The notes beneath the pieces were generated by a model. That model saw only the letters and a list, made by a program, of their open reading frames with translations. It did no database searches and was not told where the DNA came from. A program made the position numbers and the translations under genes. A stretch of 64,000 bases of DNA, taken from contig JAPPPQ010000048.1 of the NCBI GenBank assembly GCA_028817435.1, positions 679 to 64,678 on the forward strand. The letters run 5' to 3'. Source of the DNA: Deltaproteobacteria bacterium. Lineage in GTDB: Bacteria; Myxococcota_A; UBA9160; UBA6930. Below are positions 18,928 through 58,104 of this stretch, piece by piece (position 1 is the first letter of the stretch; each line of letters opens with the position of its first letter).

Positions 18928-18929
18928 AG

Positions 18930-36217: not shown

Positions 36218-36250
36218 GGCCTCGGCGGAACTGCCGGGGCCTTTTGTTAT
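36218..36250 (+). terminator. Candidate rho-independent terminator downstream of clpA
   Basis: GGCCTCGGC-ggaact-GCCGGGGCC forms a 9-bp stem with one G:U pair, followed by TTTTGTTAT. Confidence 0.5.
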
Positions 36251-36743
36251 TCGGGGAAGACTTTCAGCCCCCACCCCCACAATTTTCCGCTCGGATCTCT
36301 GTCGAATTTCGCCTTCAGCACCTCAAATGCCCGATTCCCCTGGGCGGGCTTCCACACCGACATCCCAACCGGGTGCGCAAACAAATCCGCCAATTGCAGC
36401 CCCGCAGAATTGCTCTTCTTGTCTGCAAAGACGAGTTCGAAGGGAAGCCGGGCATTTCTGTAATTGCCTCCACCGGCAACGCGCAAAAACTCCAACTCCA
36501 ACTCGCGATCTTCTCTCTTGCCCCGGCTCTCCACAACAATATGGGCAAGGCGCCGGTCCTGTCCCTTCTTTGCGAGAAAAGCGAACACCCGCTCCAGACC
36601 GTATTTCAGAGCAATGTGGTAAGGGTTGGCCGGAATATGCAAAACGCCAGCACGAATACCGGATAGCCGGGGTCAATTGAGCCGAGTCCGTGGTCCCCGC
36701 TCTCATCCACATACACGATGTAATCGCTGAATTCCCCGCTCAC
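36247..36743 (-). pseudogene. DUF3800-like gene interrupted by a frameshift near 36640-36650
   Basis: From GTG 36743 the frame reads VSGEFSDYIVYVDESGDHGLGSIDPGYPVFVLAFC and stops at 36606. The remaining 131 aa (36642..36247: ...IVVESRGKREDRELELEF...SNSAGLQLADLFAHP) are in another frame. This segment is AT-richer than its surroundings. Confidence 0.5.
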
Positions 36744-36762: not shown

Positions 36763-39700
36763 TCAGAAGGGGAGTTCGATGTTGAGGCGGAGTTGGTGGT
36801 TGGGGGTGGAGGCGTTTTCGGTGGCGCCTTCGAGGCGGATTTTGAGGCCGCGCGGGGATTGGAAGCGCAGGCCGGTGGCGTAGCGGCGCTGCGCGCCCAG
36901 AGAGAAGGCGGCGTAGGGGGTGAGCAGGCCGGGGCGGCCGAAGGGGTGCAGCGCTGCGCCGTAGGCGAGCTCGCCGGAGAGGCTGTGCTGTCCGGCAGCG
37001 TTCAGGCTGCTGCCGACCGGTGTGGAATGCGGGGTTGTGGCGGGCCAGCCGGATTGCAGGGCGGTCTGCGCCAGGGCGGATTGCAGGGCGAAGGTGAAGC
37101 CGCGGGCATCGGCGCCGCGGTCGTAGCCCATATCCAGAGAGAAGCGCACCTCTTCATGGCCGGTGTCGTTCACCTGGCTTGCGCCTTCCAGGCGCAAATC
37201 CAGGCCGCGCGAGGGCCAGGTGAGCACCACGCCGCCGCCCAGATCGAAGGCAATCTCGCGGCTGCGCGTTGCGTCCCGGATCACATCGTCGCCGCGGTCC
37301 ATATGCACCTCGGCGCTGGCAAAGGGGCGCAGGCGCAGATCGCCGCCCAGGGCAAGCAGGCTGCTGACTTCCGCCTCTCCTCCCAGACGCAGACTGCGCG
37401 TGCGCTGCTTCGGCAACGGCGTGCCGCCCACCGCCGTGCCCGTTGTAATGTCCGCAAAGCGCGTGCTTTCCAGTTCGCTGTGCACCCGCGTGGCCGAAAC
37501 GCGCAGCGCCAGATCCACAAAGGGGCCCAGCGGCACATTGCCGGAAGCGCCGCCCGAGGCCATCCACATACTGCTGCCGCCCTCGGCGCGGCGGAGAGTT
37601 TCAGCGCCCACTGTGTTTTCGCGCTCTTCAATGGTGGTATCGCCGGTTCCCCAGCCCAGCACCATCCAGGTCTGCAGCTCCGGCGTCAGCCACCAGCCAA
37701 AGTAGGGATGCACGCTCCACCGCTGGTTCTCAATGTTGCCGCGCATGGCCACATCGCTCGCGTCGCCGGCGGCGGCCGATTCGCTGAACTCGATATCGCC
37801 GCCGGAGTAGCCCAGCGCCACGCCCGCCATCAGGCTGTCGCCCAGCATGCTTTCCATGCCGAGGAAGCCCGCGTAGTTGTCGCCCTCGTAAGAAAGCGTG
37901 CGCTCGCCGCGCAACGGCGCGCCCTCCAACTGCGTGGCGCCGCCCGCGCCCCAGATCACAACTCCCGTAATGCCCGTCCAGTTCGGCGCAATCCCCTCGC
38001 TGCGGGCGTTGAAGCTGCTGCCGTTCAGCAGCTCCGCCAGGCTCGGAAGCTCGCTGCCCTGCCAGCGATTCGCGTGTTGCGAAAGCCCCGCGCCCAGTCC
38101 GCCGAATGCCGCCGCGCCGGACGCACCGGGAATGCCCGCGCCGCCACCAACTGCAGCGCCACCAACTGCAGCGCCGCCGAGTCCGCTGTCCGCACCACCG
38201 CGTCCCGCCGCGCCGTAGAGCGCGAGTCCAATTCCCTCCGCCGCTGCGCCGCCCGCGTCCTTTGCATCCTCGCGCGCGCCAGCCGCGCCGCCGCGCAGCA
38301 GTTCGCGGCCCGCCAGGCTGAGCGATCCCCAGGGCGGCGGGCCGGGCGAGCGCCCCATGCGCGCAGAGATCACATCGGTGGCGAGTTGTGCGCTGCTGCG
38401 GTCCAGCACGCCCAGCAGCGTGCGAAGGCGCGCGCCGCGGCGCTGCGCCAGTTCACTGCTCTGCCGCGCGGGAATGGTGAATTCGGCGGGCTGCGTATCC
38501 ACCGCAACCGCCATGTTCAGGTTGCCGCGCGCGCGCATCAGCGTCACCTGGAAGCGCTCCGGTTGATCCACCGGATCCGCCGCGTTGGAATCGCCATCCG
38601 CGCGGACGCGAATCCGGAAGCTGTGCGTGCTGCCGGGGACGGCGCCACTGGCAAACTCAAAGCTGCCACTCGGGAAGCTCATCAGCGCCGCGCCGTCTTC
38701 GCCGGCAAAATCCTCGCTCTCGGCCCGCAGCACACCGCTCACACTTACCTGCCAGGCCACCCGCAGGGCAGTATCCAGGCTTCGGCCGCCATTCAGCGTG
38801 GCGGTGAGAACGAGCGTGCTGCCCTCGAAAACCTGCCCGCCATTCGGCGTCAACTCCAGCGTCCAATCGGCAATTTGCGTGACGATGGGCGCGGGATCGG
38901 GACGCGGCACCATCGGGCTCTCCCCCGGCGGCAGCGGATCGCCATCCCGATCCACGGCCTCGGCGTCGTCCAGGTTCACCATCAATTCCACAATATCGTC
39001 GTCGGCGACATCCGCAGTCGCCGACATCGGCACGCGAATCTCGCCATCGGTCGCGCCGCTCTCCAGAGTAACATCGTCCTGCATCGAAGTGCCGGCGATG
39101 GTCCAGGTGTAGGACACCCGCACCCGCGTGGTGGAGACGATGGGAATGCAGCCTCCGGCCGAACTCGCCGAGTCGTCGGCGCAGCCGAAGCTCACGCGAT
39201 ACACCGCCTCGCCGCCATCCACCAGCGCCGAAGATTCCCGGACAATGCTCGCCATGATGGGATCGCTCGGCATAATTTCCGCCGATGCGCGGCGCGCCAC
39301 CACCTGCGTGGCGGGAATCCCGCCGCTGCCACCGCCCCCCGCCGTTTCGGGAACGGGGCCCAGTTCCAGGCGCAGACTCTCGCGGCCCTCGTTCAGCGGA
39401 TCTTGCAGAGTCGGAACTGTGACGCTCTGCGAATTGAGCGAGCCCGCCGGAAAGATCAGCGTGCCGGAGAGCGGCCCGCCTACTGCGCCGCTGCTCACCG
39501 AGGGCATGCCGATATCCGGATCGTCGGGATGCGCGCCGCCGTGATTGCGGCCAATCTCCCGGGCGAGTCCCGATTGCTGCGGGCCACTGGCGCTGCCCGG
39601 CACCAGAGTCCAGGGGACGCTGAATTCCTGCTCGGGCGCCATGCCCTCCAGCTCTACTTCAAAGACAATGTTCGCGCTCTCCTGAACGGGCGCGGGCGTA

Positions 39701-42700: not shown

Positions 42701-45700
42701 GTCGTGGGAGCGTCGCACGCAATATTCAGACTCAGGCTCTCCGCCGCCTCGTTCAGGTTGTCCGCCACAGCGCGGATCTCAATTGCTCCCATGCTGCTGC
42801 CCACCGCAATTTCCAGAGTCCCGCCGAGGGTTCCCGCCACCAGCCCGGAGCCGGTCTCGCCGCGCACATCCGCTGCCTCAACACCGCCCAGCGTGTAGTC
42901 CATTGTGAAATTTGTGCTGAGGATGGCTGTGCTATCCATGGGCTGCAGGCGCACGCTGAAGGTCGCGGTTGCTCCCTCATTGAAGTTCGCGGTATCTCTC
43001 GTCACAAGAACCGCCAAGGCATCATTTTCATCAATGGTCGCCGTGGCACTGCGGTCGGCAGCATTTGCGGCCCGGCCGAGATTCCCGGCAGCCGCTCCCG
43101 TAATTGCGCGCAAAGTGAAAATGATGGTCTCATCGCCCTCATTCAGCGTATCCGCCGCAATAGGGAAAGTCACCGTCACGCTGTTATCGCCTTCGGGAAG
43201 AGAAACCTCCCCGCGCATGGTGGAGGCCGTGTATCCGGCGGGCGCGATGTAATCCGTGCCCGCCGCGCTGCCGCTGATGGTGTAGGCAATCGTGGCGGTT
43301 CCGCTGCGCGCGGCTGCGCTGCCCGAATCCTGCGTGACGCTCAGCGTGAACACAGCTTTGTCCGTAGAGGTGGTCCTCACCCGCGGCTCGGTCAGCACCC
43401 CGGATGGGACGCTCACCGAAACCGTATAGGCAAACTGCGCATTTGCAGGAATTGTGACCTCCTGATTGATGAGATGGGTGTCTGACGGCGTGCTCGTGGG
43501 ATCAGAGGTCCCTCCCAGGTGGACCACGCCTGCGCTGCTGGCCGCGGTGATTGTCACGCCCAGTCCTTCCGCCATCTCCTGTCTGCTGTCGGAGAGAATG
43601 GCGAGACGGATTGGCATCGTCTGGGCATTTGCGGGAATGGTGAGAGTGCCGCCGCTCGCCGTCTTCGTCGCCCCGACTGTATCATCCCGGTAATCGGCGG
43701 AGCTGGCGCGGCTGGTTCCCGAGCCCGCGATGGCGTAGGTAACCTGCACGGGGGCACTGCGCGTGATGACATCGGGCGTCGAATAAACGGTCACATTGAA
43801 GACCGCAGAATCTCCTTCCTTCACTGAGGATGGGACAATTACAAGACTGACACGGATCTCATCATTATCGGTAATCGTCGCCGTGGCGCTCTGCATTGCG
43901 GTGGTGGTGGTGCGGGTGACCTCTCCCGCCTCTGCGCCCAGAGTCGGAGTCATCCCCAAGGAGACGATGATCGTCTCGGCCGCCTCATTCACAGTGTCGT
44001 TGTGAATGGCGATTGACAGATTTTCGCTGGTAGCGCCCGCGGCCACGGTCACCGTCAGCGGCGAGGGGGTGGTGCAGTCGCGGGTCATATCGCTGGCGGC
44101 GGCGCACTGCGCCGTGCCGCTCAGCGTGAAGGGAATCGTCACAGCGCCCTCCGAGGCCCCGCTCAGCGCAAAGACAAAGGTGGCGTTGCCGCCGTTTTCC
44201 GCCACATTGCCGCCGCCCGAAATGCTGTAGGTAATGGCGTCGTCGTCGTTGATGGTCAGTTCCACCGCATCGCCAATATCGGTTTGGCTGTCCGGGGCGC
44301 TGAGGTTGATGCTGAAGTTCTCATTGGCCTCGTTCAGGTTGTCGCCGACAATGGTGATATCAAAGAAGGCCTGCGCCGTGCTGCCCCCAGGGATGGTGAC
44401 GGTTCCCGTTGTGGCGGCGAAATCCCCCGCCTCGGTGGGGTTGGTGGCGCCGGGGGTGATGGTCCAGGTGACATCGGTGTTGCCGGAAAAGGCCACGCCC
44501 GCGCCAAATTCCACATAGAAGGTGCGCATGGTGTTCGAATTGCCCTCTGCATACGGCCCGGCCACGGCGGGGCGCAGCGTAAGCGTCCGCTCGTTGCTGC
44601 GGGTAATGACTTCGGCGGTGGCGCTCTGCTCGCCGGGCGTGTTGCTGCGGGCAATGACGCCGGCGGCCATGTAGCCGCTGGTGGCCAGCGTCACCGTCAA
44701 ATTTTCACTCTGCGTATCGGCGTCCTCGGCCAGAGAGATGCGGATGGTTCCGCTCGTGCTGCCGGCCGCAATCATGAGCCTGCCGCCGCCGGAATCGGTG
44801 TAATCGGCGGCCTGCACATTGCCCGGGCCGGTGTCAATGGCATAGGGAACCGTCACCTGCGACGCGCTGGCCTTCGACAAAGTAACGAGGAAGGTCGCCT
44901 CGCCGCCTTCTTCCACCTGGTGGCCCGCGGCGGTGGCGGCGGCATCCGTGCCGGATACGGCAATGCTGACGCTGATGGGGTCGCCGTCGGTGATCGGCAC
45001 ACTGACGGTGTTGCCGCTGCTGGTGTATTCCACGCCGCCGGCGCCAGCGCCGGTGAGACGCAGGCCGCTGGCACTGGCCGCCGCGCCGGTGACGCTGAGC
45101 GACTCGGTGGCTTCGTTCAGCATATCGTCGGTAATGTTCACGGTGATGGCGCCGGTGGTGCTGCCGTGGGCGATGGTGATGCTGTGGCCAGTGGCGGTGG
45201 TGGCCGGGGCGGGCGCAGGGGCGGTGATGTCGTAATCGCCGGCGGTGATGCCAGTGCCGCTGATGGTAAACGGCACCACAGTGCTGACGCCGCTGGCGCG
45301 GCCGCCGCCGGCCAAGGTGACGGTGAAATTCAGTGCGCCGCTGTCCTCGTTCACCGCGCCGCTGCCGCTGGCGCGGGTGATGGCCACGGTGACCGGGTCG
45401 TCGTCCGCAATGGTGGTGGATGCCGCCGCGCCGTAATCGGTGCCGCCATCGGTATTGGGATTGGCGATGCTCACCTGGACGGTGAAGGTTTCCCCGGCTT
45501 CGTTCAGATCGTCGCCGGCCGCGCGGATATTGAAATTTTTGGTGGAGTTGTTGCCGTCGCTGGTGGCGAAAGTCACCGATCCGCTGCGGTCGGTGGCGGC
45601 GACAAAGTCGGCGTCGGTGGTGCTGCCATGGGTCAGCGTCCAGGTGACGGTGGTGGAAGCCGCGGTGAAAGCCGTGCCGGTGAGGGTGACGGTGTATGCG

Positions 45701-48700: not shown

Positions 48701-51700
48701 CTGTCCGTCAGGTCGGTGGCGGCGTCGGCGTCCACCGTGCCGTTGTTGGCATCTGCGCCGAGGGTGTAGCTCAGCACCACGGCGGCGGTGGGCGTGCCGC
48801 CGCTCAGGGCGACGGTGATGGCGGCATTTGCGCCCTCTGCCACATTGCCGCCGCCGGAGACCGTCGCCACAATTTCATCTGCGGTGTCGTCCGTAATGGT
48901 GGTGGTCACCGGATCGCCCAGGGTCCAGGCGCCGCTCCGCGCGCTGATGGAAACGGTGAAAGTCTCTGTGCCCTCATTCAGCGCATCGCCCATGGCGGTA
49001 ATGCTGAAGGTCTCGCTCGAATCGCTGCCGCTGAAAGTCACGCTGCCCGCCGCGGCGCTCAGGTCGGCTGCTTCCGTGGGGTTCAGCGGATTATCCTGGG
49101 TGGAAACGGCGGGCGCTGCATTCCAGGTGATTTCAAGCATTGTGCCCGGCGGAAGGGACGGCCCCGTCCGGGTGATGGTGAACTGCGCCGCGCTGCCCTC
49201 GTTTACATTGCTCGGATCCACACCGCCCGGCCCCGAAAGCGCAAAGTTGCGGGTAACGGCCGTGCTCGAAGCAATGCGGGCGCTGGCGCTGCGGTTTGCG
49301 GGCGCAGCATCCAGCGAAACCGGGCCGGCATTCGCCCCCGGCGCGGGCGCAGACAAGTTCACGCTGAATTGCTCCGCCATCTCCGCCCGCCCGTCTTCCA
49401 CGGCGGTAATCACCAGGTCGGCCGTGGTCATTCCGGCCGCAATGCTTCCCATGCCTGCAATGCCGCCCGCCATGGTGGCCGTTGCGCCGGGTGCGCTCAG
49501 GTCCGGATTGGCCGCATTGTTCGCCGGGCCGGTGTTCTGCTGCATATCCACCGCTGCGCTGAAATCAAAATTCACCGGCCCCTCGGAGGCAGCGCTCAGG
49601 GTGACGCGGAAAGTCGCCGCGCTTCCCTCGGTAATTTCCGTGCTCAGCATGGCCGGGCTGGTGCGGGCCATGCGCAGAGTTGCGGGATCGCTGGGGCGAA
49701 TCTCAACCGCAGCGCTGTCTTCCGCCAGGGCCGTGCCGCCGCTCCCTCCCCCCGATGCATTGCTGAGCCGCAGGGTAATGGACTCCGCTCCTTCGTTCAG
49801 CGCGTCGTCGGCGATCATGACGGCGCGGGTCTGCGCGGTCTGCCAGTTGGACGGCGTGAAGGTGAGCGTTCCCGAGGCCATATTGCCGCCGGTAACCATA
49901 TAGTCCGTGCTCTCCGCTCCGGTAATGGCGTAGTTGACGGTGACATTTGCGGTGGGCGCGGGCATTCCCGCTACTGCGCCCACGAGGGAGATGCGAAAGG
50001 TAACGGTATCTCCCTCATCCACCTGCACACCGTCGGCGCTGGTGTCTCGATCCGTCGTCGATTCCAACTGGACGGTGACGCTGCGCGGAGTGGCTGAGCT
50101 TCGCTGAATCGCGGCTTGCACAGAGACCGTGCCGCGCGTCACATCGCCGCCGCCCATGCTGACCGTCTCCCCGGTGACCGCCACATTGAAGAGCTCATTG
50201 AAATTTCCAAATTGAAGCTCCGGCAAGCCATCCACGGCCGGGGTAAGGGTGAATTGCCGGCTGACAGTGCCCGCCAGAATGGTGACCGTGCCGCGCGCGT
50301 TCAAGGGGCCATTCAAAGTGACGCCGCCTGCAGTGGTGAATTCAGGATTGGAATTGGTATGGCGTTCAGTGAAGCGATTTTGATTCCAGTGCGCCACCCT
50401 GTTCGTCGCCCAGTTCACCGAAATGTCCGCCGCGCTGGGAACGCTCAGTGTCACCCGGAAAATCGCCGCCTGCCCTTCCCGGATTCCCCCGGAGCTGAAA
50501 TCCCCACCGCCCCGAATCACGGCGAGATTCAGCGTTGCCGGATCACTCTTCGCAATTACCGCGCTGGCCGTCGCCGTGCCGAGGCTGGGCGCGAGGCCGC
50601 CACCGCCGCTGGGGGTCTGCAGGGTGAGCTGCAGCGTCTCCGCCGCCTCGTTCAGATTATCGCTGAGCGCGCGGATGGTAATGTCGCCCATGGCAACGCC
50701 GCTGCCGATATTGAGCGTCCCGCCGGAGGGCGACTCAATCTCGTAATCGGCGGCAGTAATTCCCATGCCGCTCACAGAAAAGGGCACGGACACCGCCGCC
50801 AACGACACACCGCCGGAAATGCTGACGCGGAACACCGCCGCGCCGGAATCATCCGCCGCGCCTTCCACCAGATCGCCGCTGTCCATGCGCGCAACGGAAA
50901 CGCTCAGCGGATCGCTGGCGCTGATGGTGGCCGTATCCGATCCCGATGCGCTCACCGCGCCGCCGCCCGCGCCGGCCGTGACCGAGTCGAGGGTGAGAGT
51001 CAGGGTTTCGGCCGCCTCGGGATCCGCATCATCCGTAATGCCGAGAGAAAGACTCACCTCTCCCGCCGGGTCGGCCTCTACCGCCGTGCGGGTAATGGTG
51101 AAAGTGCTGGAAAGCGAATTGTGGGCGTCAATATCTGCGGCGGCAATGCCCGTGCCGCTCAGCGTGTAGCTCAGGGTCAAATCGGCAGAGGGCACGCCGC
51201 CGGCAATGGTCAGGGTGAACACTGCATCGCTGCCTTCGGCCACGGCGGCATCCGGCCCTTCCACGCTGATGCTCAGATTATCGTTATCCGAGATGGTGAG
51301 CGCCGCGTTGGCCCGGGTTGCGGAGAACATTCCGCCGCCTGCGCCGGTGGTGGGCGCGCCGAGTTCAATGCGGACAATCTCGGCCGCCTCGCTCAGCGAA
51401 TCGCCGGCGATGGTGAGGGTGATGTCCTGCGACAGCACCGCGGCAGAATCCTGCGTGGCGGCGGCGAAGACGAGCGCCGAGGGGCTGATGCTGTAATCGT
51501 CCACCGCAGTGGCCGTGCTCGAAGAGGCCACCGATACCGGAATGCGCACCGCGCCGCCGGCACTGCCCGCGCTCGCGCCGCTCAGGGTCACGCTGAAGGT
51601 GATCGTTGCGCCGTTGGTCTCGGCGCTGCTCTGGTCTGCGCCAATGGCGTAGCTGATGGTATTGCTGGCTGTGATGTCCACCGAGGCGGTGGCCGTGGCA

Positions 51701-54700
51701 ATGCCGCTGTCTCCGGTGGCGCCGCGCAGCCGCAGGGAGAGGGTCTCCGCGCCCTCATTCAGGTTATCGGCGATAATCAGCACCTCGACGGTCTGCGCCG
51801 TTTGCCAATTGCCCGGCGTGAAAGTGAGCGGCGAGGTATCGCCGGTGCTGTAGTCGCCGCTCTCAACGCCGCGCAGCTCCCAGGCCACCGTGGCATTTGC
51901 AGTGGGCGCGGTGCCCGTCAAGTTGACGCTGAAGGTGACCGTATCTCCTTCATTCACCTGCACGCCGCCGGTGGCGTTGTCGCGGTCCATGGTGGCCGCG
52001 TCCACCGCTGCGGCGAAGCTGCGCGGCGACGCTGCGCTCATGGCAATCTGCACTTCGGCGCTCTGTTCGCCCACTGTGCTGCTGCGCTGCACCGTGCCGC
52101 CCCCCGGGCCGACGGCGGGGTTCTCAGCGAGAGTCACCCGCAGCACTTCCGCCATGCTCTCCGCCACGGCGTCCTGGGTAATCTCAATGCGGAGGGCGGC
52201 GCTGGTATCGCCCGCCGGAATCGTCAGGCTGCCGCCCGCGTCGTCAATGTAATCGCCGGCGGTTACATCGCCGCCGATGGTGTAGGAAACCGTCACCGGC
52301 GCGGCGGAGCCATCGGCGGCATCGTCCAGGCGAATGCTGAAGGTGACGATATCGCCCTCGCTCGCAGTGGCGCTGCCGCTCACAATGGAAACGCTGATGG
52401 CGTCGTTATCCGCCAGGCTGGCTGTGGCGGAAGCGTCCGCTTCCGCAACCGATACCGCAGCGCCAAAGGGGCGGATGGCAGAAATAGCGACGCGGAGGGT
52501 CTCCGCCGCCTCGTTCAAAGCGTCGTCCGCCGCCGTCAGCGTAAGATCTGCAAAGGCGGTGGTCATGCCTGTGACGGGGGGAATCTCGAGCACGCCGCCC
52601 GCGGGCGTGAAGGTGCAATCCACAGCCATGCCGCTGCCGCAGCCGGTGACGGCAAAATCCACCATGGCCGCAGCGCCCAGTTCTGCGCCGCTGATGGTAA
52701 TGCGGAACACGGCGGTGCCCGCCGCGCCCGCGCCGCCCTCTGCGAAACCGTCGCCGTCCTGCCGCGCAATGGCGGCCGTGCCGCTTTCATCATCGGTAAT
52801 GGAAACGCCGGCTTTTTCTCCCATGCCGGAGATGCGCCCGCCGCCGCCGCTCACCGCGCCGAGGGTAACTTCCAACTGCTCCGCCGCTTCCAGCAGCGAA
52901 TCGTCTGTGGCGCGGATTTGGATTTCGAGACTCGTTTGCGACGCGCTGAGGGTGAGGCTGCCGCCCGTTGCCTCTGCGCCGAGAGCGGGCTGCGCAATGT
53001 TGTAATCCCCCGCAGTAATTCCCGTGCCGCCCACGCCGAAGGGCACCGTGACATCTTCCACCGGCGTTGCGCCGCCCAGCGCCACCGTAAATGTGGCTGT
53101 TCCCCCCGCCTCGGCAATTGCGCCCGATTCTCCCGCTTTGCGGACAATGCCCACCGAAACCACATCATCATCGGTAATGGTCAGCGTGCCGCTGCGCTCG
53201 TTGGCGTCGGCATCCGCCCCCGCCAGCACAAAGAGCGGGTTGCCGGTGCCGGTAAGGCGCAGCACCAGGGTGCGGGAAGCCTGCGGCGTGGTGTTCTCCG
53301 TGGTTGTGACCGAAATGCCGTGGCTGCTGCTGGAGGTGACCGTCAATGCCAGCGGCGAAGTGAGGGCGCTGTAATCCGTGCCGGATGCAGCAGTGCCCGC
53401 AGGGAGTTCCTCGAAAGCCAGCATGAGCGCGCTGCTCGCCGGGCGCGTGCCGGTGAAGGTAAGTGGCAGCGCGGCCGTTTCGCCTTCTTCCACCTGCACA
53501 TCTCCCAAACTCACCGATACCGGATCGCTGACGGCAATGGAGCCCTGCGCGCTTTGGGCGCTACCGAGGGCGTAGGGTTCCGGATCGCTGGGATCTTGGG
53601 TAATTGCGCCCAGGGTAACGGTGTAAAACTCCTGCGGCTCGACGGCGCTGTCGTCGTAGATGGTAAGCGTGAAGGATTGACTGGCCGCGTTGGCGGCGAT
53701 GGTGACGCTGCCGGTGGGATAGCTGCTGCCGCCGCTGCCGAAATCCTCCGCTGCGGCGTCCTCGTCCATGGTATCCGGGGTGGCGGCCACGCTGTAAGCC
53801 ACCGTGACGGCCATGGGCGGCGCGGTGGTTATGCTGACCGTGAATTCGGCCGTGGCGCCCTCTGCGGTTCCCGCCGCCGATGCCTCGGCCGCAATGCTGA
53901 GGGTGGCCGGGGCGCGCACCTGCAGCGCAATGCGCTGCAGGCTCTGCAGACCGCCGGGGTCTTCGGCCGTCACCGTAATGTTCGCCGTGCCCGCCATGAG
54001 CGGCGTAATGGAGAGCGAACTGCCCATAATGCTCGCCGTTGCAACAGCGGTATCGGAGGATGCCGCGGTGTAGCTGAGCGTATCGCCGTCCGGATCGCTG
54101 AATGCGGTCGAAACATCCAGCGTGCGGACCGCGCCGCCGCCCACCAGCGCCGGGACGCTGATTGTGCCCTGCGCAACCGGCGGGCGGTTTCCGCCCATGC
54201 TCGCGCCGATGGTCCCCGTCGCCACGCTGCGCGTAATGTTGATTGCGCCGCCCTGCCAGGCTTCGGCGTCTTCGCCGCCCACCGCCGCAACGGATTGCAG
54301 GGTGACGCTGAATTGCTCGTTAGCGTCGGAGAGGGCGTCCATGAACAGGGGAATGCGCAGCACCGGATTGGCGGGCATGGCGGGGACGCTCAACCGGCCC
54401 GAGGGAAATGCCGAAGCCGCGCCATCGCCAAAATCGGCCGCAGTGGTCGTGCCGAGGCCCGCCACCGCCCAGTCCAGCAGCAGCGCGCCGCCGCGCTGCC
54501 CGCCGGTCATGGCAATGCTGAATTCGGCGAAATTGCCCTCTGCGGTGGGCGTGGCATCGGAAATGCTGATGGCGATGGGATCGTCATCCGTCAGCGTGGT
54601 GGTGGCCGAGGCGGGGACCGTGCCGGTTGCGCCGGCTGCGCCGGGCTCGACGGAAAGTGAAACGCTGAATTCTTCGGTGGCCTCGTTCAGCGCATCGTTC

Positions 54701-57057
54701 GTGGGCGTAATGGTAATGGTGTGCGGGCCGCTGTTGCTGGCGGGCCACATGATATTGCCGCTGACGGCCGTGAAATCCGCAGCCGAGGCGGGCGCTGCGC
54801 CGCTGCCGCCAATGGCCCAGTTCACCTGGGTCTCTGCGGCAAACTGCATTCCGGTGAGCGTCGCCATGTAGCTCAGCGCGCCGCCGTTTTCGGCGGCGCT
54901 GGTGGGGCCGGAGAGCGACAGCGTGCGCGTTGGCATATTGCCGCTGGCCGCAATGGTGAAGTAGGTGGGGGGATCGTCCCGAAAATTGGCGAGGACATCC
55001 GAGAAGGAAGTTGTGCGCAATGCGGTTGGGCCAGAGGCGCGCTCATCACTGGCGATCAGAACTGTTTCCGCTGCCTCCGTCGCAGCGTCTGCAACAACCT
55101 GAATTTGAACGGTGAAGGCAGTCTGCACATTTGCGGGAATGTGCACATTGAATCGCAGGCAGGGCCGATTTGTAGTGGAGATTGTACATCGGCCGGGCGC
55201 GACCCCGGAGACACGATCTCCACTGATGCGGATATCTGCGGCAGAGCTGATGGCGGCAGCGGCGCCCGAGACTGTTCGCGACAATTCGATATCTCCCGCC
55301 ATCCAAATTCCCACGGGAAGAAGGACTTCCCTGCGAGGTCCAGGGAGCATAGCGGCGACGCCGGGATCAAGGCTGGAAGGGGCGATGGTAAATTGCACCT
55401 CTACCGTCTCGCCCTCTTGCACCGTGGTGGTCCCCACATTTCCACTCCGGGAGGTAACCGTTTGATCGGCATTGACGATGCTGGTGGAGATATCCCAAGC
55501 ATCGTTCTGCCCAAGGGAAGAAAAATGACCTCCCGCCAGAATGCTGCCGGTGGCGCGGGATTTCAGCAGGCTGACGGTCCCCGGCATCGGGCTGCTGAGA
55601 ATGACATCATAGAATTCCTCGGCAGACTCGAATCGGGATTGCGTGCCCTCACTATCATCAGAGAATTCAATTGTGATGGTCTTGATCCGCTCGCGCTGCG
55701 CGTGCCGGAAGGTGAGCGTGCCATCGTAGGAAGTCATCGTACCGACATTGATTCTGAAATCGGTGTAGAAGCCACGCACATCGCCGGTGGGCGCGCGCAC
55801 TTCCGCATTGGGGGTTCCCGGATTCTGATCCGGCCCGACCCTCCAATTCACCGTGACATCCTGCGCCGGCGGATTCAGCAGCGTGACCGTGAAAGTCGCA
55901 GTCTCGAACTCTTCCCGCCGCAGCGCATTCGTCGCATCTATGCGCAGCTGCGGCGTGAGCTGGAAATCGTTGAAGGCGATGGCGGCGCTGGCGCTGGCGG
56001 CGCTGATATCCGGCGCGGGACTCAGGCCGCTGATGCTGCTCACCGTCAGGATGATGGTCTCTGCGCTCTCCTCCTCTATATCGTCGAGCAGCGCGAGCAC
56101 CACCTCTCCGCTGCTGCTGTCCGCCGCAATGGTCAGGCTGCCGCTCACCCCGTCCGCCGCAACGCTGCCGCCGCTGGTGACGCGGTAATCCATGCCCTGC
56201 GCGGCAGTGCCCGTGAGCGCCCAGTTGACCGTCGCCTCTTCCGTGCGCGTGCTGCCGCCAAATGTGATGCTGAAAGTGAGGGTGCCGCCCTCCGACACCT
56301 GCTGCGGCGTGGCCGAGACATCCAGCGTCACCTGCGCCCACCCCGGCGCGGCCCCCAGCATGAACGCCAGCACCACCCCGCCCAGCCGCAACGCCCCCGC
56401 ATGCACCCCGAGCCGCCCCAGCCGCGCCCGCAAGCCCTCTCCCCGCCGCGACCCAAGCCGCACGCCAGGAACTGCGATGGGGAGAGCGCCATGGAGCGCG
56501 GCGGAGGGCGCGCCGTTGGCCGCGGCGGGGCGAGCGCCGTTGATGGCGCCGTCGGCTGCGGCGGGGGGCGCGCCGTTGATGGTGCCGTTGGCCGCGGCGG
56601 GGCGAGCGCCGTTGGCCGCGCCATTGGCCGCGGCGGGAGGCGCGCCATTCACCGCGGCGGGGCGAGCGCCGTTGGCCGCGCCGTTGGCCGCGGCGGGAGG
56701 CGCGCCGTTGACCGGCGGCGGGGGCGGGTGCTCCGCTGCGGCGGCCGCGGGATCGGCGACCACATCGAAAAGCTCAATCTCAACCTCGCCGGGCGGCGGG
56801 GCGGCCGGCGCGGGGTCGGCGGCCGGGGCGTCCCCCGTGGGGAGAGACCAGGTGAAGGCGGGGCGGCAGGGGCGGCGGGGGCGCAGCTTCTCAAACAGGG
56901 CCAGGCCGGCGTCGCACAGCCAATTGAAGCGCGGGAAGCGCGGCTGCGGCGCAGCGGGCGCGGGAGAGCAATCCAGCAGGCCGGCGCGCAGAGGGCGCGC
57001 GGCGGACGGGGCGAAACCGCGCCCGCCGAACCCGGGCCCCGAGAAGCCCGCTCGCAT
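36763..57057 (-). CDS. Giant (~6,760 aa) surface protein. It has an N-terminal Pro/Ala-rich extension, a signal-peptide-like segment, dozens of Calx-beta-like repeats, one cadherin/Ig-like module, and a C-terminal autotransporter (type Va) beta-barrel.
   Basis: A single open frame with high third-position GC throughout. Repeated motifs include ALNEATEEFSVSLS, DDALNEAPEVFLVTI, GDNLNEAGEAFTVQISI and TLTDDDPIAISI. The C-terminus ends ...HQLRLNIELPF. The start is uncertain: the first ATG after the trpC-divergent intergenic region is at 57057, and an alternative GTG at 56463 lies directly before RLGSRRGEGLRARLGRLGVHAGALRLGGVVLAFMLGAAPGWA/QV. The listed ORF start at 58089 is antisense to trpC and was rejected. 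Confidence 0.85.
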   Translation of the reverse strand: MRAGFSGPGFGGRGFAPSAARPLRAGLLDCSPAPAAPQPRFPRFNWLCDAGLALFEKLRPRRPCRPAFTWSLPTGDAPAADPAPAAPPPGEVEIELFDVVADPAAAAAEHPPPPPVNGAPPAAANGAANGARPAAVNGAPPAAANGAANGARPAAANGTINGAPPAAADGAINGARPAAANGAPSAALHGALPIAVPGVRLGSRRGEGLRARLGRLGVHAGALRLGGVVLAFMLGAAPGWAQVTLDVSATPQQVSEGGTLTFSITFGGSTRTEEATVNWALTGTAAQGMDYRVTSGGSVAADGVSGSLTIAADSSSGEVVLALLDDIEEESAETIILTVSSISGLSPAPDISAASASAAIAFNDFQLTPQLRIDATNALRREEFETATFTVTLLNPPAQDVTVNWRVGPDQNPGTPNAEVRAPTGDVRGFYTDFRINVGTMTSYDGTLTFRHAQRERIKTITIEFSDDSEGTQSRFESAEEFYDVILSSPMPGTVSLLKSRATGSILAGGHFSSLGQNDAWDISTSIVNADQTVTSRSGNVGTTTVQEGETVEVQFTIAPSSLDPGVAAMLPGPRREVLLPVGIWMAGDIELSRTVSGAAAAISSAADIRISGDRVSGVAPGRCTISTTNRPCLRFNVHIPANVQTAFTVQIQVVADAATEAAETVLIASDERASGPTALRTTSFSDVLANFRDDPPTYFTIAASGNMPTRTLSLSGPTSAAENGGALSYMATLTGMQFAAETQVNWAIGGSGAAPASAADFTAVSGNIMWPASNSGPHTITITPTNDALNEATEEFSVSLSVEPGAAGATGTVPASATTTLTDDDPIAISISDATPTAEGNFAEFSIAMTGGQRGGALLLDWAVAGLGTTTAADFGDGAASAFPSGRLSVPAMPANPVLRIPLFMDALSDANEQFSVTLQSVAAVGGEDAEAWQGGAINITRSVATGTIGASMGGNRPPVAQGTISVPALVGGGAVRTLDVSTAFSDPDGDTLSYTAASSDTAVATASIMGSSLSITPLMAGTANITVTAEDPGGLQSLQRIALQVRAPATLSIAAEASAAGTAEGATAEFTVSITTAPPMAVTVAYSVAATPDTMDEDAAAEDFGSGGSSYPTGSVTIAANAASQSFTLTIYDDSAVEPQEFYTVTLGAITQDPSDPEPYALGSAQSAQGSIAVSDPVSVSLGDVQVEEGETAALPLTFTGTRPASSALMLAFEELPAGTAASGTDYSALTSPLALTVTSSSSHGISVTTTENTTPQASRTLVLRLTGTGNPLFVLAGADADANERSGTLTITDDDVVSVGIVRKAGESGAIAEAGGTATFTVALGGATPVEDVTVPFGVGGTGITAGDYNIAQPALGAEATGGSLTLSASQTSLEIQIRATDDSLLEAAEQLEVTLGAVSGGGGRISGMGEKAGVSITDDESGTAAIARQDGDGFAEGGAGAAGTAVFRITISGAELGAAAMVDFAVTGCGSGMAVDCTFTPAGGVLEIPPVTGMTTAFADLTLTAADDALNEAAETLRVAISAIRPFGAAVSVAEADASATASLADNDAISVSIVSGSATASEGDIVTFSIRLDDAADGSAAPVTVSYTIGGDVTAGDYIDDAGGSLTIPAGDTSAALRIEITQDAVAESMAEVLRVTLAENPAVGPGGGTVQRSSTVGEQSAEVQIAMSAASPRSFAAAVDAATMDRDNATGGVQVNEGDTVTFSVNLTGTAPTANATVAWELRGVESGDYSTGDTSPLTFTPGNWQTAQTVEVLIIADNLNEGAETLSLRLRGATGDSGIATATASVDITASNTISYAIGADQSSAETNGATITFSVTLSGASAGSAGGAVRIPVSVASSSTATAVDDYSISPSALVFAAATQDSAAVLSQDITLTIAGDSLSEAAEIVRIELGAPTTGAGGGMFSATRANAALTISDNDNLSISVEGPDAAVAEGSDAVFTLTIAGGVPSADLTLSYTLSGTGIAAADIDAHNSLSSTFTITRTAVEADPAGEVSLSLGITDDADPEAAETLTLTLDSVTAGAGGGAVSASGSDTATISASDPLSVSVARMDSGDLVEGAADDSGAAVFRVSISGGVSLAAVSVPFSVSGMGITAADYEIESPSGGTLNIGSGVAMGDITIRALSDNLNEAAETLQLTLQTPSGGGGLAPSLGTATASAVIAKSDPATLNLAVIRGGGDFSSGGIREGQAAIFRVTLSVPSAADISVNWATNRVAHWNQNRFTERHTNSNPEFTTAGGVTLNGPLNARGTVTILAGTVSRQFTLTPAVDGLPELQFGNFNELFNVAVTGETVSMGGGDVTRGTVSVQAAIQRSSATPRSVTVQLESTTDRDTSADGVQVDEGDTVTFRISLVGAVAGMPAPTANVTVNYAITGAESTDYMVTGGNMASGTLTFTPSNWQTAQTRAVMIADDALNEGAESITLRLSNASGGGSGGTALAEDSAAVEIRPSDPATLRMARTSPAMLSTEITEGSAATFRVTLSAASEGPVNFDFSAAVDMQQNTGPANNAANPDLSAPGATATMAGGIAGMGSIAAGMTTADLVITAVEDGRAEMAEQFSVNLSAPAPGANAGPVSLDAAPANRSASARIASSTAVTRNFALSGPGGVDPSNVNEGSAAQFTITRTGPSLPPGTMLEITWNAAPAVSTQDNPLNPTEAADLSAAAGSVTFSGSDSSETFSITAMGDALNEGTETFTVSISARSGAWTLGDPVTTTITDDTADEIVATVSGGGNVAEGANAAITVALSGGTPTAAVVLSYTLGADANNGTVDADAATDLTDSGNGAFTIALADLTTPPHTFNIAAVDDALNEAPEVFLVTIDAVSSAGTASARGSPRTFTITDGDDISVSIDQASGEPATVDEGQPARFTVTLAGPSSGSAAEITVPYKVETSGTGYTPTDAGNGSLRIAAGQTSGTITLQMPLSATLGAGDDDQTVTVTLTGDEPATMDNDEGPTAASGGGNVARSSVPAAQSAEVMVNFVDAARTLSVTGPATINENDDATGGASGAYTVTLTGMAFTAASTTVTWTLTHVGTADADFVAASDRSGSVTFSSSDGNNSTKNFNIRAAGDNLNEAGEAFTVQISITDPDADGGTDYGAAASTTIADDDSITATLSGGGSVAEGSNAVVTVTLSGGTPTAAVVLRYTLGADANNGTVDADTAMDITDGGGGSFTIATTDTAPHSFNIAAVADAINEAPEVFLVNAGTVSSTGTAGAAGSPQTFTITDGNDITVSIARASVTQATVDEGQSANFTVTLSGASGGSVADITVPYMVAISGTGYAPTDSGGGSLTISARQTSGTITLQMPLSATLGATSDDQTVTVTLAVDDATTPSMDEGPTAASGGGNVARSSTPADQSAQVAVNFVEAARTLSVTGPATINENDDATDGASGAYTVTLTGMAFTAASTTVTWTLTHVGTADADFVAASDRSGSVTFSSSDGDTSAKNFNIRAAGDNLNEAGEAFTVQVSITDPDADGGTDYGAAASTTISDDDPIAVGVTTTTAVSEGGNAVLNVDLGAIPSRDVTVAYTLGNTSATTDVDATPSGMGADLTDTSGGSITITAAGGVATGSITVGIGADNRNESAETFTVAITAAGISGAHGAASVASGGTQTFTIAESDPITVSIARARSTMSTVAEGQSAEFTVTLAGASAGSAAEITVPYAVTPSGSYTPTDSGSGSLRIAAGQTSGTITLQMPISATLGAGDDDQTVTVTLAGDDATTPSMDEGPTAASGGGNVARSSTPADQSAQVAVNFVEAARTLSVTGPATINENDDATNGASGAYTVTLTGTAFTAASTTVTWTLTHGSTTDADFVAATDRSGSVTFATSDGNNSTKNFNIRAAGDDLNEAGETFTVQVSIANPNTDGGTDYGAAASTTIADDDPVTVAITRASGSGAVNEDSGALNFTVTLAGGGRASGVSTVVPFTISGTGITAGDYDITAPAPAPATTATGHSITIAHGSTTGAITVNITDDMLNEATESLSVTGAAASASGLRLTGAGAGGVEYTSSGNTVSVPITDGDPISVSIAVSGTDAAATAAGHQVEEGGEATFLVTLSKASASQVTVPYAIDTGPGNVQAADYTDSGGGRLMIAAGSTSGTIRISLAEDADTQSENLTVTLATSGYMAAGVIARSNTPGEQSATAEVITRSNERTLTLRPAVAGPYAEGNSNTMRTFYVEFGAGVAFSGNTDVTWTITPGATNPTEAGDFAATTGTVTIPGGSTAQAFFDITIVGDNLNEANENFSINLSAPDSQTDIGDAVELTINDDDAITYSISGGGNVAENGGNATFVFALSGASEGAVTIPFTLSGTAQCAAASDMTRDCTTPSPLTVTVAAGATSENLSIAIHNDTVNEAAETIIVSLGMTPTLGAEAGEVTRTTTTAMQSATATITDNDEIRVSLVIVPSSVKEGDSAVFNVTVYSTPDVITRSAPVQVTYAIAGSGTSRASSADYRDDTVGATKTASGGTLTIPANAQTMPIRLAILSDSRQEMAEGLGVTITAASSAGVVHLGGTSDPTSTPSDTHLINQEVTIPANAQFAYTVSVSVPSGVLTEPRVRTTSTDKAVFTLSVTQDSGSAAARSGTATIAYTISGSAAGTDYIAPAGYTASTMRGEVSLPEGDNSVTVTFPIAADTLNEGDETIIFTLRAITGAAAGNLGRAANAADRSATATIDENDALAVLVTRDTANFNEGATATFSVRLQPMDSTAILSTNFTMDYTLGGVEAADVRGETGSGLVAGTLGGTLEIAVGSSMGAIEIRAVADNLNEAAESLSLNIACDAPTTVGPASIATALCDRDTGMLRIPPSTISASDPITISIAAPAPDSVSEGSDAVFAVTLSGAIAGSEAAIMLPYSVADFTQANTDATNAPNTGANPDIEGGAAGGGLSGQRITIAAGTVSAMIRIPLQQDGLAEGAETFTVTLGTPVPGSGAGAVSLGASQASATIPANAAFTRFLSVTIGAQDSTARTANVAEGEAAQFNVKLEGAAPEDGMPVTVDWSASGTSETADHGCTSGTFSFTAVGTQPMSCPIRADGLNEAAETLIFTLSNPMGGGTGGVGIRGTAQASATATISASDPITYSITGPAGAFTEGAMSQGAARTLDFSVLLTGRSEGEVVIPFEVDSSTQTGGTARGGVAGDVVRDFTTPTPLSVRIAAGQLSGTIAIEVHNDRRNEAPESIVIALLPETHGSFSTGAEAGAVTRIATAAAQRATAMITDDAADALVLSIARISGTEVREGQSAVFEVSIPSGGADPVSSAALCVPYTIGGNGISVSDYTDTTPRAANAPCMGMLRIAAGASTGRITLEIRPDGTAEAAETLRVTLGTPTSAGAARVGANGMAQVVIPANAAAAHIVNISAAAAQVAEAPDANAIFNLSVVDATPRTRNITITYQIDSSSTAAAVDYTAPYTGASGMLSIAAAGTIAQISIPITNDGLNEGAETLVLRLLSATGGSNHQSAVGTATATVTLMPSDPLTAVLSRIGSGDLVEGGTGGAESAMLRVSLSGAELSADVSLPWRITGAVAGAVTAADLSLSANAGRVSGTLGGTLTIAQTANPTEITITLSAVADNLNEAAEMFTLALLDEAPPRPASERPGSAGPVMVSRTPGQASAALQLASSDPLTVGIAAPNPASLREGQIAVFTVTLSGASAGSAAAVMIPWSAQIAAQQNAAGEPNTDALPDFCFLPAASDSCSPRTGNAVLANAAGMLGPQQLVIAAGQTSAQLRIQALFDNLDEGTTDEQLTLSLQAPTAAAGGGTVALAAAANRSAAVDIVNVNALRTLAVATPAPVQESANIVFEVELEGMAPEQEFSVPWTLVPGSASGPQQSGLAREIGRNHGGAHPDDPDIGMPSVSSGAVGGPLSGTLIFPAGSLNSQSVTVPTLQDPLNEGRESLRLELGPVPETAGGGGSGGIPATQVVARRASAEIMPSDPIMASIVRESSALVDGGEAVYRVSFGCADDSASSAGGCIPIVSTTRVRVSYTWTIAGTSMQDDVTLESGATDGEIRVPMSATADVADDDIVELMVNLDDAEAVDRDGDPLPPGESPMVPRPDPAPIVTQIADWTLELTPNGGQVFEGSTLVLTATLNGGRSLDTALRVAWQVSVSGVLRAESEDFAGEDGAALMSFPSGSFEFASGAVPGSTHSFRIRVRADGDSNAADPVDQPERFQVTLMRARGNLNMAVAVDTQPAEFTIPARQSSELAQRRGARLRTLLGVLDRSSAQLATDVISARMGRSPGPPPWGSLSLAGRELLRGGAAGAREDAKDAGGAAAEGIGLALYGAAGRGGADSGLGGAAVGGAAVGGGAGIPGASGAAAFGGLGAGLSQHANRWQGSELPSLAELLNGSSFNARSEGIAPNWTGITGVVIWGAGGATQLEGAPLRGERTLSYEGDNYAGFLGMESMLGDSLMAGVALGYSGGDIEFSESAAAGDASDVAMRGNIENQRWSVHPYFGWWLTPELQTWMVLGWGTGDTTIEERENTVGAETLRRAEGGSSMWMASGGASGNVPLGPFVDLALRVSATRVHSELESTRFADITTGTAVGGTPLPKQRTRSLRLGGEAEVSSLLALGGDLRLRPFASAEVHMDRGDDVIRDATRSREIAFDLGGGVVLTWPSRGLDLRLEGASQVNDTGHEEVRFSLDMGYDRGADARGFTFALQSALAQTALQSGWPATTPHSTPVGSSLNAAGQHSLSGELAYGAALHPFGRPGLLTPYAAFSLGAQRRYATGLRFQSPRGLKIRLEGATENASTPNHQLRLNIELPF
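36766..37962 (-). other. Autotransporter-type beta-barrel translocator domain of the giant protein
   Basis: VVIWGAGGATQLEG...YAGFLGMESMLGDSLMAGVALGYSGG...WSVHPYFGWWLTPELQTWMVLGWGTGD. The region shows alternating hydrophobic strands and a terminal aromatic residue (Phe). Confidence 0.7.
45400..48900. repeat. Three tandem ~1.15-1.17 kb coding super-repeats (about 385 aa, roughly four Calx-beta modules each) inside the giant gene
   Basis: The marker string atcatcgttttcgttgatgg recurs at 45721, 46891 and 48043 (spacing 1170 and 1152 bp). Protein blocks ARTLSVTGPATINENDDAT...NFNIRAAGDNLNEAGEAFTVQ occur three times, nearly identically. Confidence 0.85.
53917..54185 (-). other. Single cadherin-like / bacterial Ig-like module embedded in the Calx-beta array
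   Basis: PVAQGTISVPALVGGGAVRTLDVSTAFSDPDGDTLSYTAASSDTAVATASIMGSSLSITPLMAGTANITVTAEDPGGLQSLQRIALQV. Confidence 0.5.
56500..56716. repeat. 60-bp tandem repeat (two near-perfect units plus one or two diverged units) encoding an N-G-A-P-rich 20-aa repeat
   Basis: Units 56593-56652 and 56653-56712 differ at only a few bases. On the minus strand the in-frame translation is VNGAPPAAANGAANGARPAA x2, followed by variants. Confidence 0.85.
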
Positions 57058-57312
57058 GAGAACAGGGCTCTTCACTTGCCAGCTCAGCCAGTAACGCGCT
57101 CCGCGCTGGCGGCGCGGGGCGCGGCCTCCCCTATCCGTCCTAATGGCCAATGGCCAGGTTCCTCGAATGGGGGAAGCTTTCAGTTCAGCGGGCCGAAACC
57201 TGCCCAACTTTTTCCCGCCGCGCAACCCCCAGGGAAATTTTCCCGTCCCCCAGGGGACGCCCTGACAGCCTGGGGCAAAAGAAACGCTACTCTCCGGGAA
57301 AAAGGAGGCGCC
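57058..57312. promoter_or_regulatory. Divergent intergenic region between the giant gene and trpC. It presumably holds both promoters.
   Basis: This is the only clearly non-coding, AT-richer stretch here. It contains CCCCCAGGG motifs at 57226 and 57248, and AAAGGAGG 5 nt before the trpC ATG. No -35/-10 pair could be assigned with confidence. Confidence 0.4.
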
Positions 57313-58104
57313 ATGCTGTTGGAAATGGCCGCAAACCGGGGCAAGGAGTTCCGGCTGGGCCGGGGAAACCGGGGCCAGGGCGACGCCCCCGCCCCCCAAT
57401 CCCGGGGGTTCGAGGAAAGGCTGCGGCGGCAGGCGGCCCCCGGCATTATCGCAGAGCTGAAGAGCCGCTCCCCGAGCCAAGGCGCAATCCGGGCGGATCT
57501 CGACCCCGCCGGGCTGGCCCGCAGGCTCGAGTCTTCCGGCGCGGCCGCCCTGTCTGTCATTACGGACGCAAAGTATTTCGGTGGCAGCCTGGAATGGCTG
57601 AGCGCCGCCCGGGAAGCCTGCAGCCTCCCCGTGTTGCGCAAGGATTTCATCGTTGACCCGCACCAGATTGACGAGGCCAAAGCGGCGGGCTCGGACGCAG
57701 TTTTGCTGATTGCGCGGCTTCACCAGGAGCCCGGCACACCGCCGCTGGAAGAGCTGCACCGCAGGGCGCGGGAACTGGAAATGGAAGCCCTGGTGGAAGT
57801 GCGCACCGAACGGGAAATGGCCGAGGCCGCCCGCATCGGGGCTACTTTGATCGGCGTGAACGCGAGAAATCTGGAAGATGTGCGGCAGGCCCCGGATTTG
57901 TCCATATTCGAGCGGCTCGCTCCGCTGGCCCCCCCGGAGGCCCTGCTGGTTGCAGCCAGCGGCCTCCGCTCCGGAGCGGATATTCACCGCATGGCCCGCG
58001 CCGGGGCCGGCGCATTTTTGATTGGCGGGGAAATTATGCAGGCGCGGGAACCGGGCCTGCGGCTCGCCGAACTGATTGCGGAAACGCAAGCGCTTTGCTG
58101 CTGA
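57313..58104 (+). CDS. trpC: Indole-3-glycerol phosphate synthase
   Basis: RBS AAAGGAGG. Motifs IIAELKSRSPSQG, LRKDFIVDPHQIDEAKAAGSDAVLLI and IGVNARNL. Confidence 0.88.
   Translation: MLLEMAANRGKEFRLGRGNRGQGDAPAPQSRGFEERLRRQAAPGIIAELKSRSPSQGAIRADLDPAGLARRLESSGAAALSVITDAKYFGGSLEWLSAAREACSLPVLRKDFIVDPHQIDEAKAAGSDAVLLIARLHQEPGTPPLEELHRRARELEMEALVEVRTEREMAEAARIGATLIGVNARNLEDVRQAPDLSIFERLAPLAPPEALLVAASGLRSGADIHRMARAGAGAFLIGGEIMQAREPGLRLAELIAETQALCC

Follow-up and report, generated by a model that had tools for sequence, protein, structure and literature searches.

The window analysed here is a stretch of 64,000 nucleotides from an uncultured, high-G+C bacterium labelled 'Deltaproteobacteria bacterium' at NCBI (assembly GCA_028817435.1, contig JAPPPQ010000048.1, positions 679 to 64,678 of the forward strand). 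It encodes on its minus strand a giant protein that, taken as a whole, is likely to be an acidic surface fibre, i.e. an adhesin, which exports itself via an autotransporter-type barrel of 18 strands. Read from the sequence, the order of its parts is a signal peptide, 44 Calx-beta-like modules together with one Big_9 domain, a conserved helix, a variable linker and a barrel of the autotransporter family that terminates in a beta-signal (Table 1). A preliminary description of the window, made from the letters and their open reading frames (ORFs) alone, had already proposed the Calx-beta-type modules and the autotransporter C-terminus, and had regarded the protein as atypical, expecting a 12-strand barrel. 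What is new here is that this architecture is recurrent, not unique, and that the barrel is predicted to have 18 strands.

The minus-strand frame is uninterrupted between positions 36763 and 58089, with the stop codon at 36763-36765. It comprises 7,108 codons if counted from TTG 58089 and 6,764 if counted from ATG 57057, so that the earlier figure of about 6,760 uninterrupted codons holds, and the modules run through it unbroken. The start codon assumed for that figure, ATG 57057, is probably not the one used. The 5' end of the frame is antisense read-through, because trpC is located there on the plus strand (57313-58104; Pfam IGPS, 227 bits). The TrpC reading frame overlaps the start of HisS (58095-59420), and the same arrangement is annotated on contig L005, which comes from another sequencing run. 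A start at TTG 58089, which is antisense to trpC, was therefore rejected. ATG 57057 is also picked by a gene caller on the identical contig L005, but would place the signal peptide internally, about 210 residues into the protein and behind a low-complexity (NGAxPAAA)n stretch; it is thus a poor fit to Sec export and was rejected as well. The likely start, as judged from the sequence, is TTG 56433, because module 1 (from ORF residue 581) follows directly behind a signal-peptide-like stretch (...RLGGVVLAFMLGAAPGWA, then QV), GGAGAG is situated 5 nt upstream of this codon, and the homologs P0006 and P0205 have an N-terminus in which a short signal peptide is followed at once by a module. The stretch before module 1, also written ...RARLGRLGVHAGALRLGGVVLAFMLGAAPGWA before QV, has the appearance of a Sec signal peptide. 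Reading by eye thus gives a putative Sec signal peptide (...VVLAFMLGAAPGWA, then QV) at the N-terminus and an aromatic beta-signal (...LNIELPF) at the C-terminus. The gene would accordingly extend over about 19.7 kb (36763-56433, minus strand) and encode a precursor of 6,556 aa and a mature protein of 6,523 aa with 650.7 kDa and a pI of 4.08. The product is highly acidic, with 707 Asp and Glu versus 264 Lys and Arg residues, Lys accounting for just 0.3%.

Between trpC and the likely start (56479-56726), a 12-nt unit is repeated in tandem, imperfectly and up to 17 times; in the frame of the giant gene, this repeat translates as (NGAxPAAA)n. It could represent a variable regulatory or 5' region. 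A promoter scan of the region upstream of the giant gene revealed nothing above chance.

To describe the passenger, we trained a hidden Markov model (HMM) on the repeats of the protein itself. With this model, 44 modules tile ORF residues 581-6531, with lengths of 97-165 aa (median 121 aa) and a median period of 129 aa, and the sole gap in the tiling, 109 residues long, is occupied by the Big_9 domain. The assignment to the Calx-beta type was confirmed by Pfam, as PF03160 reached 188.5 bits on one half of the protein and 165.9 bits on the other (cut-off 27). When the modules were scanned singly, 18 of the 44 matched Calx-beta (E <= 0.01) and six matched the LapA domain. The preliminary description had asked whether the repeats might score as a different Ig-like family; apart from LapA, no competing Pfam family recurred among the singly scanned modules, and Big_9 appeared once.

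The profile of the 44 modules found its best solved-structure matches in the CBD1 and CBD2 domains of the Na+/Ca2+ exchanger NCX1 (E 1.6e-12), and the conserved module residues align onto the ENCG, SDYEF and DDDIFEEDE segments of CBD1. Acidic positions are kept across the modules in most copies, namely E23 in 37, D58 in 39, D89 in 39, E93 in 36 and E96 in 39 of the 44, and the junctions between modules are rich in Asp. The E, D and D..E..E positions of the modules thereby fall on acidic residues of CBD1 which we take to be Ca2+ ligands in its structure. This conservation of acidic sites suggests that the modules of the giant protein probably bind Ca2+. The likeness has its limits in the setting of the domains, as CBD1 and CBD2 reside in the cytoplasm and regulate a transporter of eukaryotes, whereas the window modules are proposed to be extracellular structural repeats.

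The C-terminus behaves as the preliminary description had expected of an autotransporter in so far as family membership is concerned. The Pfam Autotransporter model PF03797 matches with 33.7 bits (E 4.3e-8; gathering score 26), and the Gly/Ala linker, the VVIWGAGG... segment and the ending ...NIELPF are all present. Within the match, 209 residues align to profile positions 15-206 of 255, and a further 172 residues lie beyond it. The linker itself has no Pfam match. Upstream of it, a conserved helix-like motif of about 35 aa recurs in 14 homologs, where it is located 127-396 residues before the WG motif of the barrel.

The expected fold of 12 strands with an internal helix was not obtained. With an alignment of 23 sequences, AlphaFold2 predicted 18 strands (predicted local distance difference test score, pLDDT, 87.0; predicted template-modelling score, pTM, 0.77), and the same 18 strands were already returned with four sequences (pLDDT 70.8). 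For the 31 residues preceding strand 1, the prediction shows no more than a helix of 5 residues and one short strand. The model is almost all strand, with strands joined mainly by tight turns, and short turns alternate with long variable loops; since the loops at residues 199-219 and 335-358 (numbering of the modelled segment) share one face of the model, opposite to the C-terminus, it has the pattern expected of an outer-membrane barrel. Across 23 homologs, strands 7-18 show a clean hydrophobic alternation (e.g. 0.75 vs 0.13) and strands 1-6 show it along part of their length, while the strongest lipid-facing alternation is found in strands 13-18. Furthermore, strands 14-17 resemble strands 8-11 (barrel residues 355-433 and 215-335, within window positions 36766-37800, minus strand; hhalign probability 71.5%, P 3.6e-5), compared to P-values of 0.03-0.15 in control comparisons between other parts of the barrel. 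The resemblance suggests that strands 14-17 may be a diverged copy of strands 8-11 and that a duplicated double hairpin may have enlarged the barrel. Together with the model, this leads us to regard the barrel as probably autotransporter-derived and enlarged to 18 strands.

We then searched the barrel profile exhaustively against 1.84 billion cluster representatives. This revealed 2,635 representatives with E <= 1e-3, of which 1,308 reached E <= 1e-10 and 51 reached E <= 1e-30. The exhaustive HMM search was needed to reveal the family because the word-indexed search is insensitive: the latter had returned three partial relatives with 38-39% identity, two of which are named by NCBI and come from metagenome-assembled genomes (MAGs) of Deltaproteobacteria, and then 9 matches. 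The HMM from the window's own repeats detected Calx-like modules in 70 of the 150 best representatives, and the architecture is consequently not a one-off. Pfam confirmed Calx-beta in P0008, P0010 and P0011, and other members of the barrel family carry cadherin-like and Big_9 passengers. In full-length relatives the barrel match is C-terminal and spans about 400 residues; the order of an N-terminal passenger and a C-terminal barrel was kept in every full-length relative examined, and the relatives examined terminate in F or W. PF03797 is also present in the homologs P0001-P0003, P0199-P0201 and P0204, which bear the NCBI name 'autotransporter outer membrane beta-barrel domain-containing protein', whereas the named full-length members examined are all called "hypothetical protein". 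The protein thus belongs to a large uncharacterised family in which Calx-beta or cadherin-like passengers are combined with the same type of barrel.

Large relatives comprise 4,927 aa with 33 modules, 5,189 aa with 31, 5,524 aa with 33 (30 at first, 33 on re-scanning) and 5,753 aa with 31, and proteins of 4-5.7 kaa are among those encoded on long-read-style contigs. Among the relatives examined, the window protein with its 6,556 aa and 44 modules is the largest. Three paralogs of 3,528-5,189 aa (P0010, P0016 and P0021) are encoded on one 2.88-Mb contig. P0205 (MDD9800929.1; 4,419 aa, 22 modules) has a barrel 38% identical to that of the window, and its accession number and locus tag OXU53_00005, compared to MDD9802798.1 for the LeuC of the window, suggest that it originates from the same MAG. 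Family members are also carried by MAGs of Gammaproteobacteria with OXU locus tags and MDD98 accessions, which probably belong to the same submission. Together with the multiple divergent paralogs per genome (P0205; L007 8001-22784), this hints at lateral spread within one habitat. Scans of genome contigs, conducted with an alignment and with the single barrel, yielded no relative. In the literature we found no paper on Calx-beta passengers with autotransporter barrels, nor on autotransporter barrels with more than 12 strands, in agreement with the earlier statement that no characterised example is known.

Based on these data, the following route can be proposed. The Sec signal peptide would bring the 6,556-aa precursor into the periplasm, where the machinery that assembles beta-barrels (BAM) would insert the C-terminal barrel, whose homology to autotransporter beta-domains is supported by Pfam, into the outer membrane via the terminal ...ELPF beta-signal, so that the barrel could anchor the protein. 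The passenger would then thread out from its C- to its N-terminal end, and the 44 modules and the Big_9 domain would fold outside. Folding and Ca2+ loading at the conserved acidic sites may act as a ratchet that gives export its directionality and stiffens the stalk, which from the module count and the known domain size might be about 0.2 µm long. The preliminary description had raised the steric problem of passing Ig-like modules through a 12-strand barrel; the wider pore of an 18-strand barrel could relax this problem and ease their export. The conserved helix and the variable Gly/Ala linker would join the stalk to the barrel and might plug the pore, act as a spacer or serve in oligomerisation. 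A likely role of the fibre would be Ca2+-dependent attachment to the host or to other cells. The single-gene, self-exporting architecture suggested earlier agrees with the genomic setting, as secretion genes of type I, type II or the two-partner kind are absent from the window, including any for an ABC transporter, a membrane-fusion protein or TolC, and as the homolog P0010, too, has housekeeping genes and no secretion partner genes around it. The missing partner genes at both loci therefore seem to fit a self-contained, type V-like export.

Several points weigh against this proposal. The route of export, the location at the surface and the two proposed functions, Ca2+ binding and adhesion, are inferences. 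Pfam detects no distinct ligand-binding domain at the N-terminal tip or in the last modules. NCBIfam models, including that for autotransporters, do not match the C- or the N-terminus, and a PDB sequence search with the barrel, either as a single sequence or as a 23-sequence profile, gave no meaningful match even at E 10. The count of 18 strands was derived from the DSSP string, the hydrophobic periodicity and the Foldseek scores, not from the model coordinates. The variable distance of 127-396 residues between helix and barrel is unlike classical autotransporters, whose pore holds an alpha-helical linker just ahead of strand 1. Finally, positions 45440-56652 of the window are covered by no independent contig.

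This last point raises the question of whether the size and continuity of the frame could be an assembly artefact, i.e. the result of collapsed or expanded repeats or of a chimera in the middle of the gene. Contigs of other sequencing runs, which are independent of the window assembly, are 100% identical to the window at both ends of the gene, L006 (ERR5003482) over 24175-45439, including the last 2,891 codons, and L005 (ERR5002203) over 56653-59500. The claim of an intact ORF thus stands at its two ends and lacks independent support in between. Both short-read contigs stop at repeats, L006 at the edge of a three-copy super-repeat and L005 inside the upstream tandem repeat. The DNA copies of the super-repeat are 76-96% identical and spaced 1152-1173 nt apart, the protein copies are 67-80% identical, and the longest exact repeat measures 177 nt. 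The middle of the gene lacks outside confirmation because a scan of Joint Genome Institute (JGI) metagenome contigs with this segment gave no ortholog but only Big_9-level similarity (<=49% identity over about 100 residues). A search of the protein collection returned nothing more than 39% identical to the window barrel. On the other side, the frame is open through the middle, its third-position G+C remains at 0.72-0.83 over the entire length, the modules tile it without breaks, and homologs of 4.9-5.8 kaa are known from contigs of 0.5-2.9 Mb. An artefact therefore appears improbable to us; the giant gene is real, and the copy number of the super-repeat, and hence the precise length, is provisional. 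Somewhat less improbable, though still unlikely, is an ordinary type Va autotransporter in which a 12-strand barrel carries long extracellular loops or extensions, the 18 strands are an AlphaFold artefact and the passenger alone is unusual. The match to the Pfam Autotransporter model is compatible with such a barrel, as are motifs of classical pattern in strands 1-5 (WG.GG..., Y.GD...G.D, LAG.ALG.S.GD and HPY..W) and the sequence identities in Foldseek alignments, which amount to 14-17% with EstA, NalP and BrkA versus 8-12% with TonB-dependent receptors. The residues beyond the Pfam match, however, stand where classical barrels have about 49 profile positions, the model is confident and consists almost entirely of strands with tight turns, and the strands alternating most strongly toward lipid are among those in excess of 12. 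Moreover, Foldseek searches against the PDB yielded no good structural match: the template-modelling (TM) scores with the 12-strand barrels NalP, BrkA, EspP and EstA were only 0.30-0.35 normalised to the query and 0.50-0.56 to the target, compared to 0.48-0.50 (query) with 22-strand TonB-dependent receptors.

Self-export through the enlarged barrel also has to be weighed against other routes. The barrel might serve as outer-membrane anchor or pore only, with the Calx array exported by another machine or retained in the periplasm. In favour of this, a long linker of variable length keeps the conserved helix remote from the barrel, no long pore-spanning helix is predicted beside strand 1, and we know of no precedent for the export of 6,000 aa through one barrel. 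Nevertheless, we give this division of labour a low probability, comparable to that of an assembly artefact, since partner secretion genes are missing near the window gene and P0010, the combination of N-terminal signal peptide, C-terminal barrel and Pfam homology matches autotransport, and the order of passenger and barrel is constant in the full-length relatives examined. Secretion by a type I system, as for the RTX/Bap-like adhesins LapA, SiiE and BapP, was rejected as a reading and retains hardly any probability. Arrays of Calx-beta and Big_9 domains are typical of such adhesins (PMC12153261), and the LapA domain is matched by six window modules. Like the window protein, LapA, SiiE, MpIBP and BapP are acidic, of very large size and composed of beta-sandwich extender modules of the Calx-beta or Big type; the modules of these giant type I adhesins are stiffened by Ca2+, and the proteins serve in surface adhesion or biofilm formation (PMC12153261, PMC7616799). 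The one paper found to be close in theme concerns BapP, which is linked to type I secretion (PMC12153261). These proteins differ in having a C-terminal RTX/type I secretion signal, adjacent genes for ABC transporter, membrane-fusion protein and TolC, and N-terminal retention modules. The window protein instead has a putative Sec signal peptide and a C-terminal barrel, which contradicts type I secretion; Pfam shows no RTX repeats and no other family at the C-terminus, and type I secretion genes are lacking in the window.

Among the type V systems, type Va (NalP, EspP, BrkA and EstA; PF03797) is most similar. Shared features are the N-terminal signal peptide and passenger, a C-terminal barrel of the same Pfam family, an aromatic beta-signal at the very end and the encoding by one gene that has no partner genes. 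In contrast to the 12 strands of type Va, the window barrel of about 400 aa is predicted to form 18, so that on the model the protein departs from this type. Further differences are the lack of a predicted long pore helix by strand 1, the position of the conserved helix 127-396 residues upstream, a passenger of 44 Calx-beta modules in place of a beta-helix and the lack of PDB or NCBIfam sequence matches to the barrel. Type Ve proteins (intimin, invasin) are similar in that a type V barrel displays a chain of Ig-like domains, and they demonstrate that beta-sandwich arrays are exportable by type V systems (PMC7718877). Their order is reversed, with an N-terminal barrel and a C-terminal passenger, their barrels have 12 strands, their domains are of the Big_1/Big_2 families, and characterised arrays are much shorter. 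Type Vb differs as well, since neither the window protein nor its neighbours have Pfam matches to TpsB/POTRA or TPS domains.

Table 1 Positions of the giant gene, the parts of its product and associated repeats in the window. Dots before or after a sequence indicate that it continues.
Feature	Position	Strand	Basis or remark
Likely coding sequence, 6,556 codons + stop	36763..56433	-	Open frame, GGAGAG, signal peptide, homolog starts
Predicted Sec signal peptide (MRARLGRLGVHAGALRLGGVVLAFMLGAAPGWA, then QV)	56335..56433	-	By eye: basic n-region, hydrophobic core, GWA-Q cleavage motif
Passenger: 44 tandem Calx-beta-like modules + one Big_9	38497..56334	-	Self-built HMM, Pfam
Big_9 bacterial Ig-like domain, single, between modules 5 and 6	53932..54258	-	PF17963, 32.4 bits vs cut-off 23.6
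Super-repeat: 3 copies of 384-390 aa (three modules) each	45418..48903	-	Segment at risk of mis-assembly
Conserved helix-like motif (SSELAQRRGARLRTLLGVLDRSSAQLATDVISARMG) after last module	38350..38469	-	Recurs in 14 homologs
Gly/Ala-rich low-complexity linker, length varies among homologs	38065..38349	-	Read from sequence
Putative translocator/anchor: short conserved segment (ELPSLAELLNGSSF), then ~400-aa barrel ending ...LRLNIELPF	36766..38064	-	PF03797, AlphaFold2
12/24/36-nt tandem repeat	56479..56726		Just upstream of likely start; inside ORF if ATG 57057

The giant gene is embedded in chromosomal housekeeping surroundings, comprising the dcw cluster, FtsA/FtsZ, RNase P RNA, LeuCD, ClpS/ClpA, the giant gene itself, TrpC, HisS and SpeA. 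It is directly bordered by ClpS/ClpA and a DUF3800 gene at one end and by TrpC/HisS at the other. The DUF3800 gene (131 aa; 36247-36642, minus strand) is situated directly downstream of the giant gene, in a 685-nt spacer of lower G+C that separates it from clpA. Between hisS and speA, an 82-nt direct repeat (96% identical; 59457-59537 and 61283-61364) flanks about 1.75 kb of lower-G+C DNA with three small genes, including an AAA_18/zeta-toxin-like one at 60561-61238, which may be a small inserted element. The window has a G+C content of about 70%; positions 16000-22000, with 58-63%, possibly represent an acquired surface-glycan island and contain a family-2 glycosyltransferase (16436-17404, minus strand) as well as two large ORFs without Pfam match (17407-19086 and 18930-20579, minus strand). 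In the dcw cluster (7234-11220, plus strand), MurG (ORF residues 487-839) and MurC (867-1311) share a single uninterrupted frame, which is either a fusion or a stop-free overlap typical of high-G+C DNA. The Rfam scan of the whole window detected only the bacterial class A RNase P RNA (23060-23470, plus strand; 237 bits).

Calx-beta domains are prominent in the literature on the sponge aggregation factor. In sponge microbiomes, Calx-beta is listed as an enriched "eukaryotic-like" domain (PMC9531527). A contig 98.6% identical to the window carries the sample label "ROBB21-1"; a sponge origin of this sample is a guess, as the habitat could not be confirmed. It may be speculated, as a tentative and in its entirety rather doubtful reading, that the family constitutes an unrecognised subclass of type V secretion with more than 1,000 metagenomic relatives, in which hairpin duplication expanded the barrel to 18 strands and the wider pore permits the self-export of Ig-like (Calx-beta or cadherin) arrays of up to about 6,500 aa. 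If the bacteria are symbionts of animals, possibly of sponges, such a fibre could engage or mimic the Calx-beta aggregation factors of the host.

How type V systems transport large or folded passengers is an open question that has been framed almost wholly on 12-strand barrels and beta-helical passengers. The populous clade described here offers a natural test case, since its autotransporter-family barrel exceeds the usual length by half, with 18 strands predicted at high confidence, and since it consistently carries arrays of Ig-like, putatively Ca2+-binding repeats, in the present protein of about 650 kDa. To our knowledge, there is no experimental study of any member of this widespread family, and databases label such proteins "hypothetical" or give them generic barrel names. 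In this clade one could examine if the width of the pore follows the kind of passenger, and if export is driven by extracellular folding and Ca2+ binding. For giant Ca2+-dependent adhesins, which have hitherto been tied to type I secretion, it would supply a new anchoring route. It also points to a protein by which uncultured marine bacteria, probably living in association with hosts, may attach.

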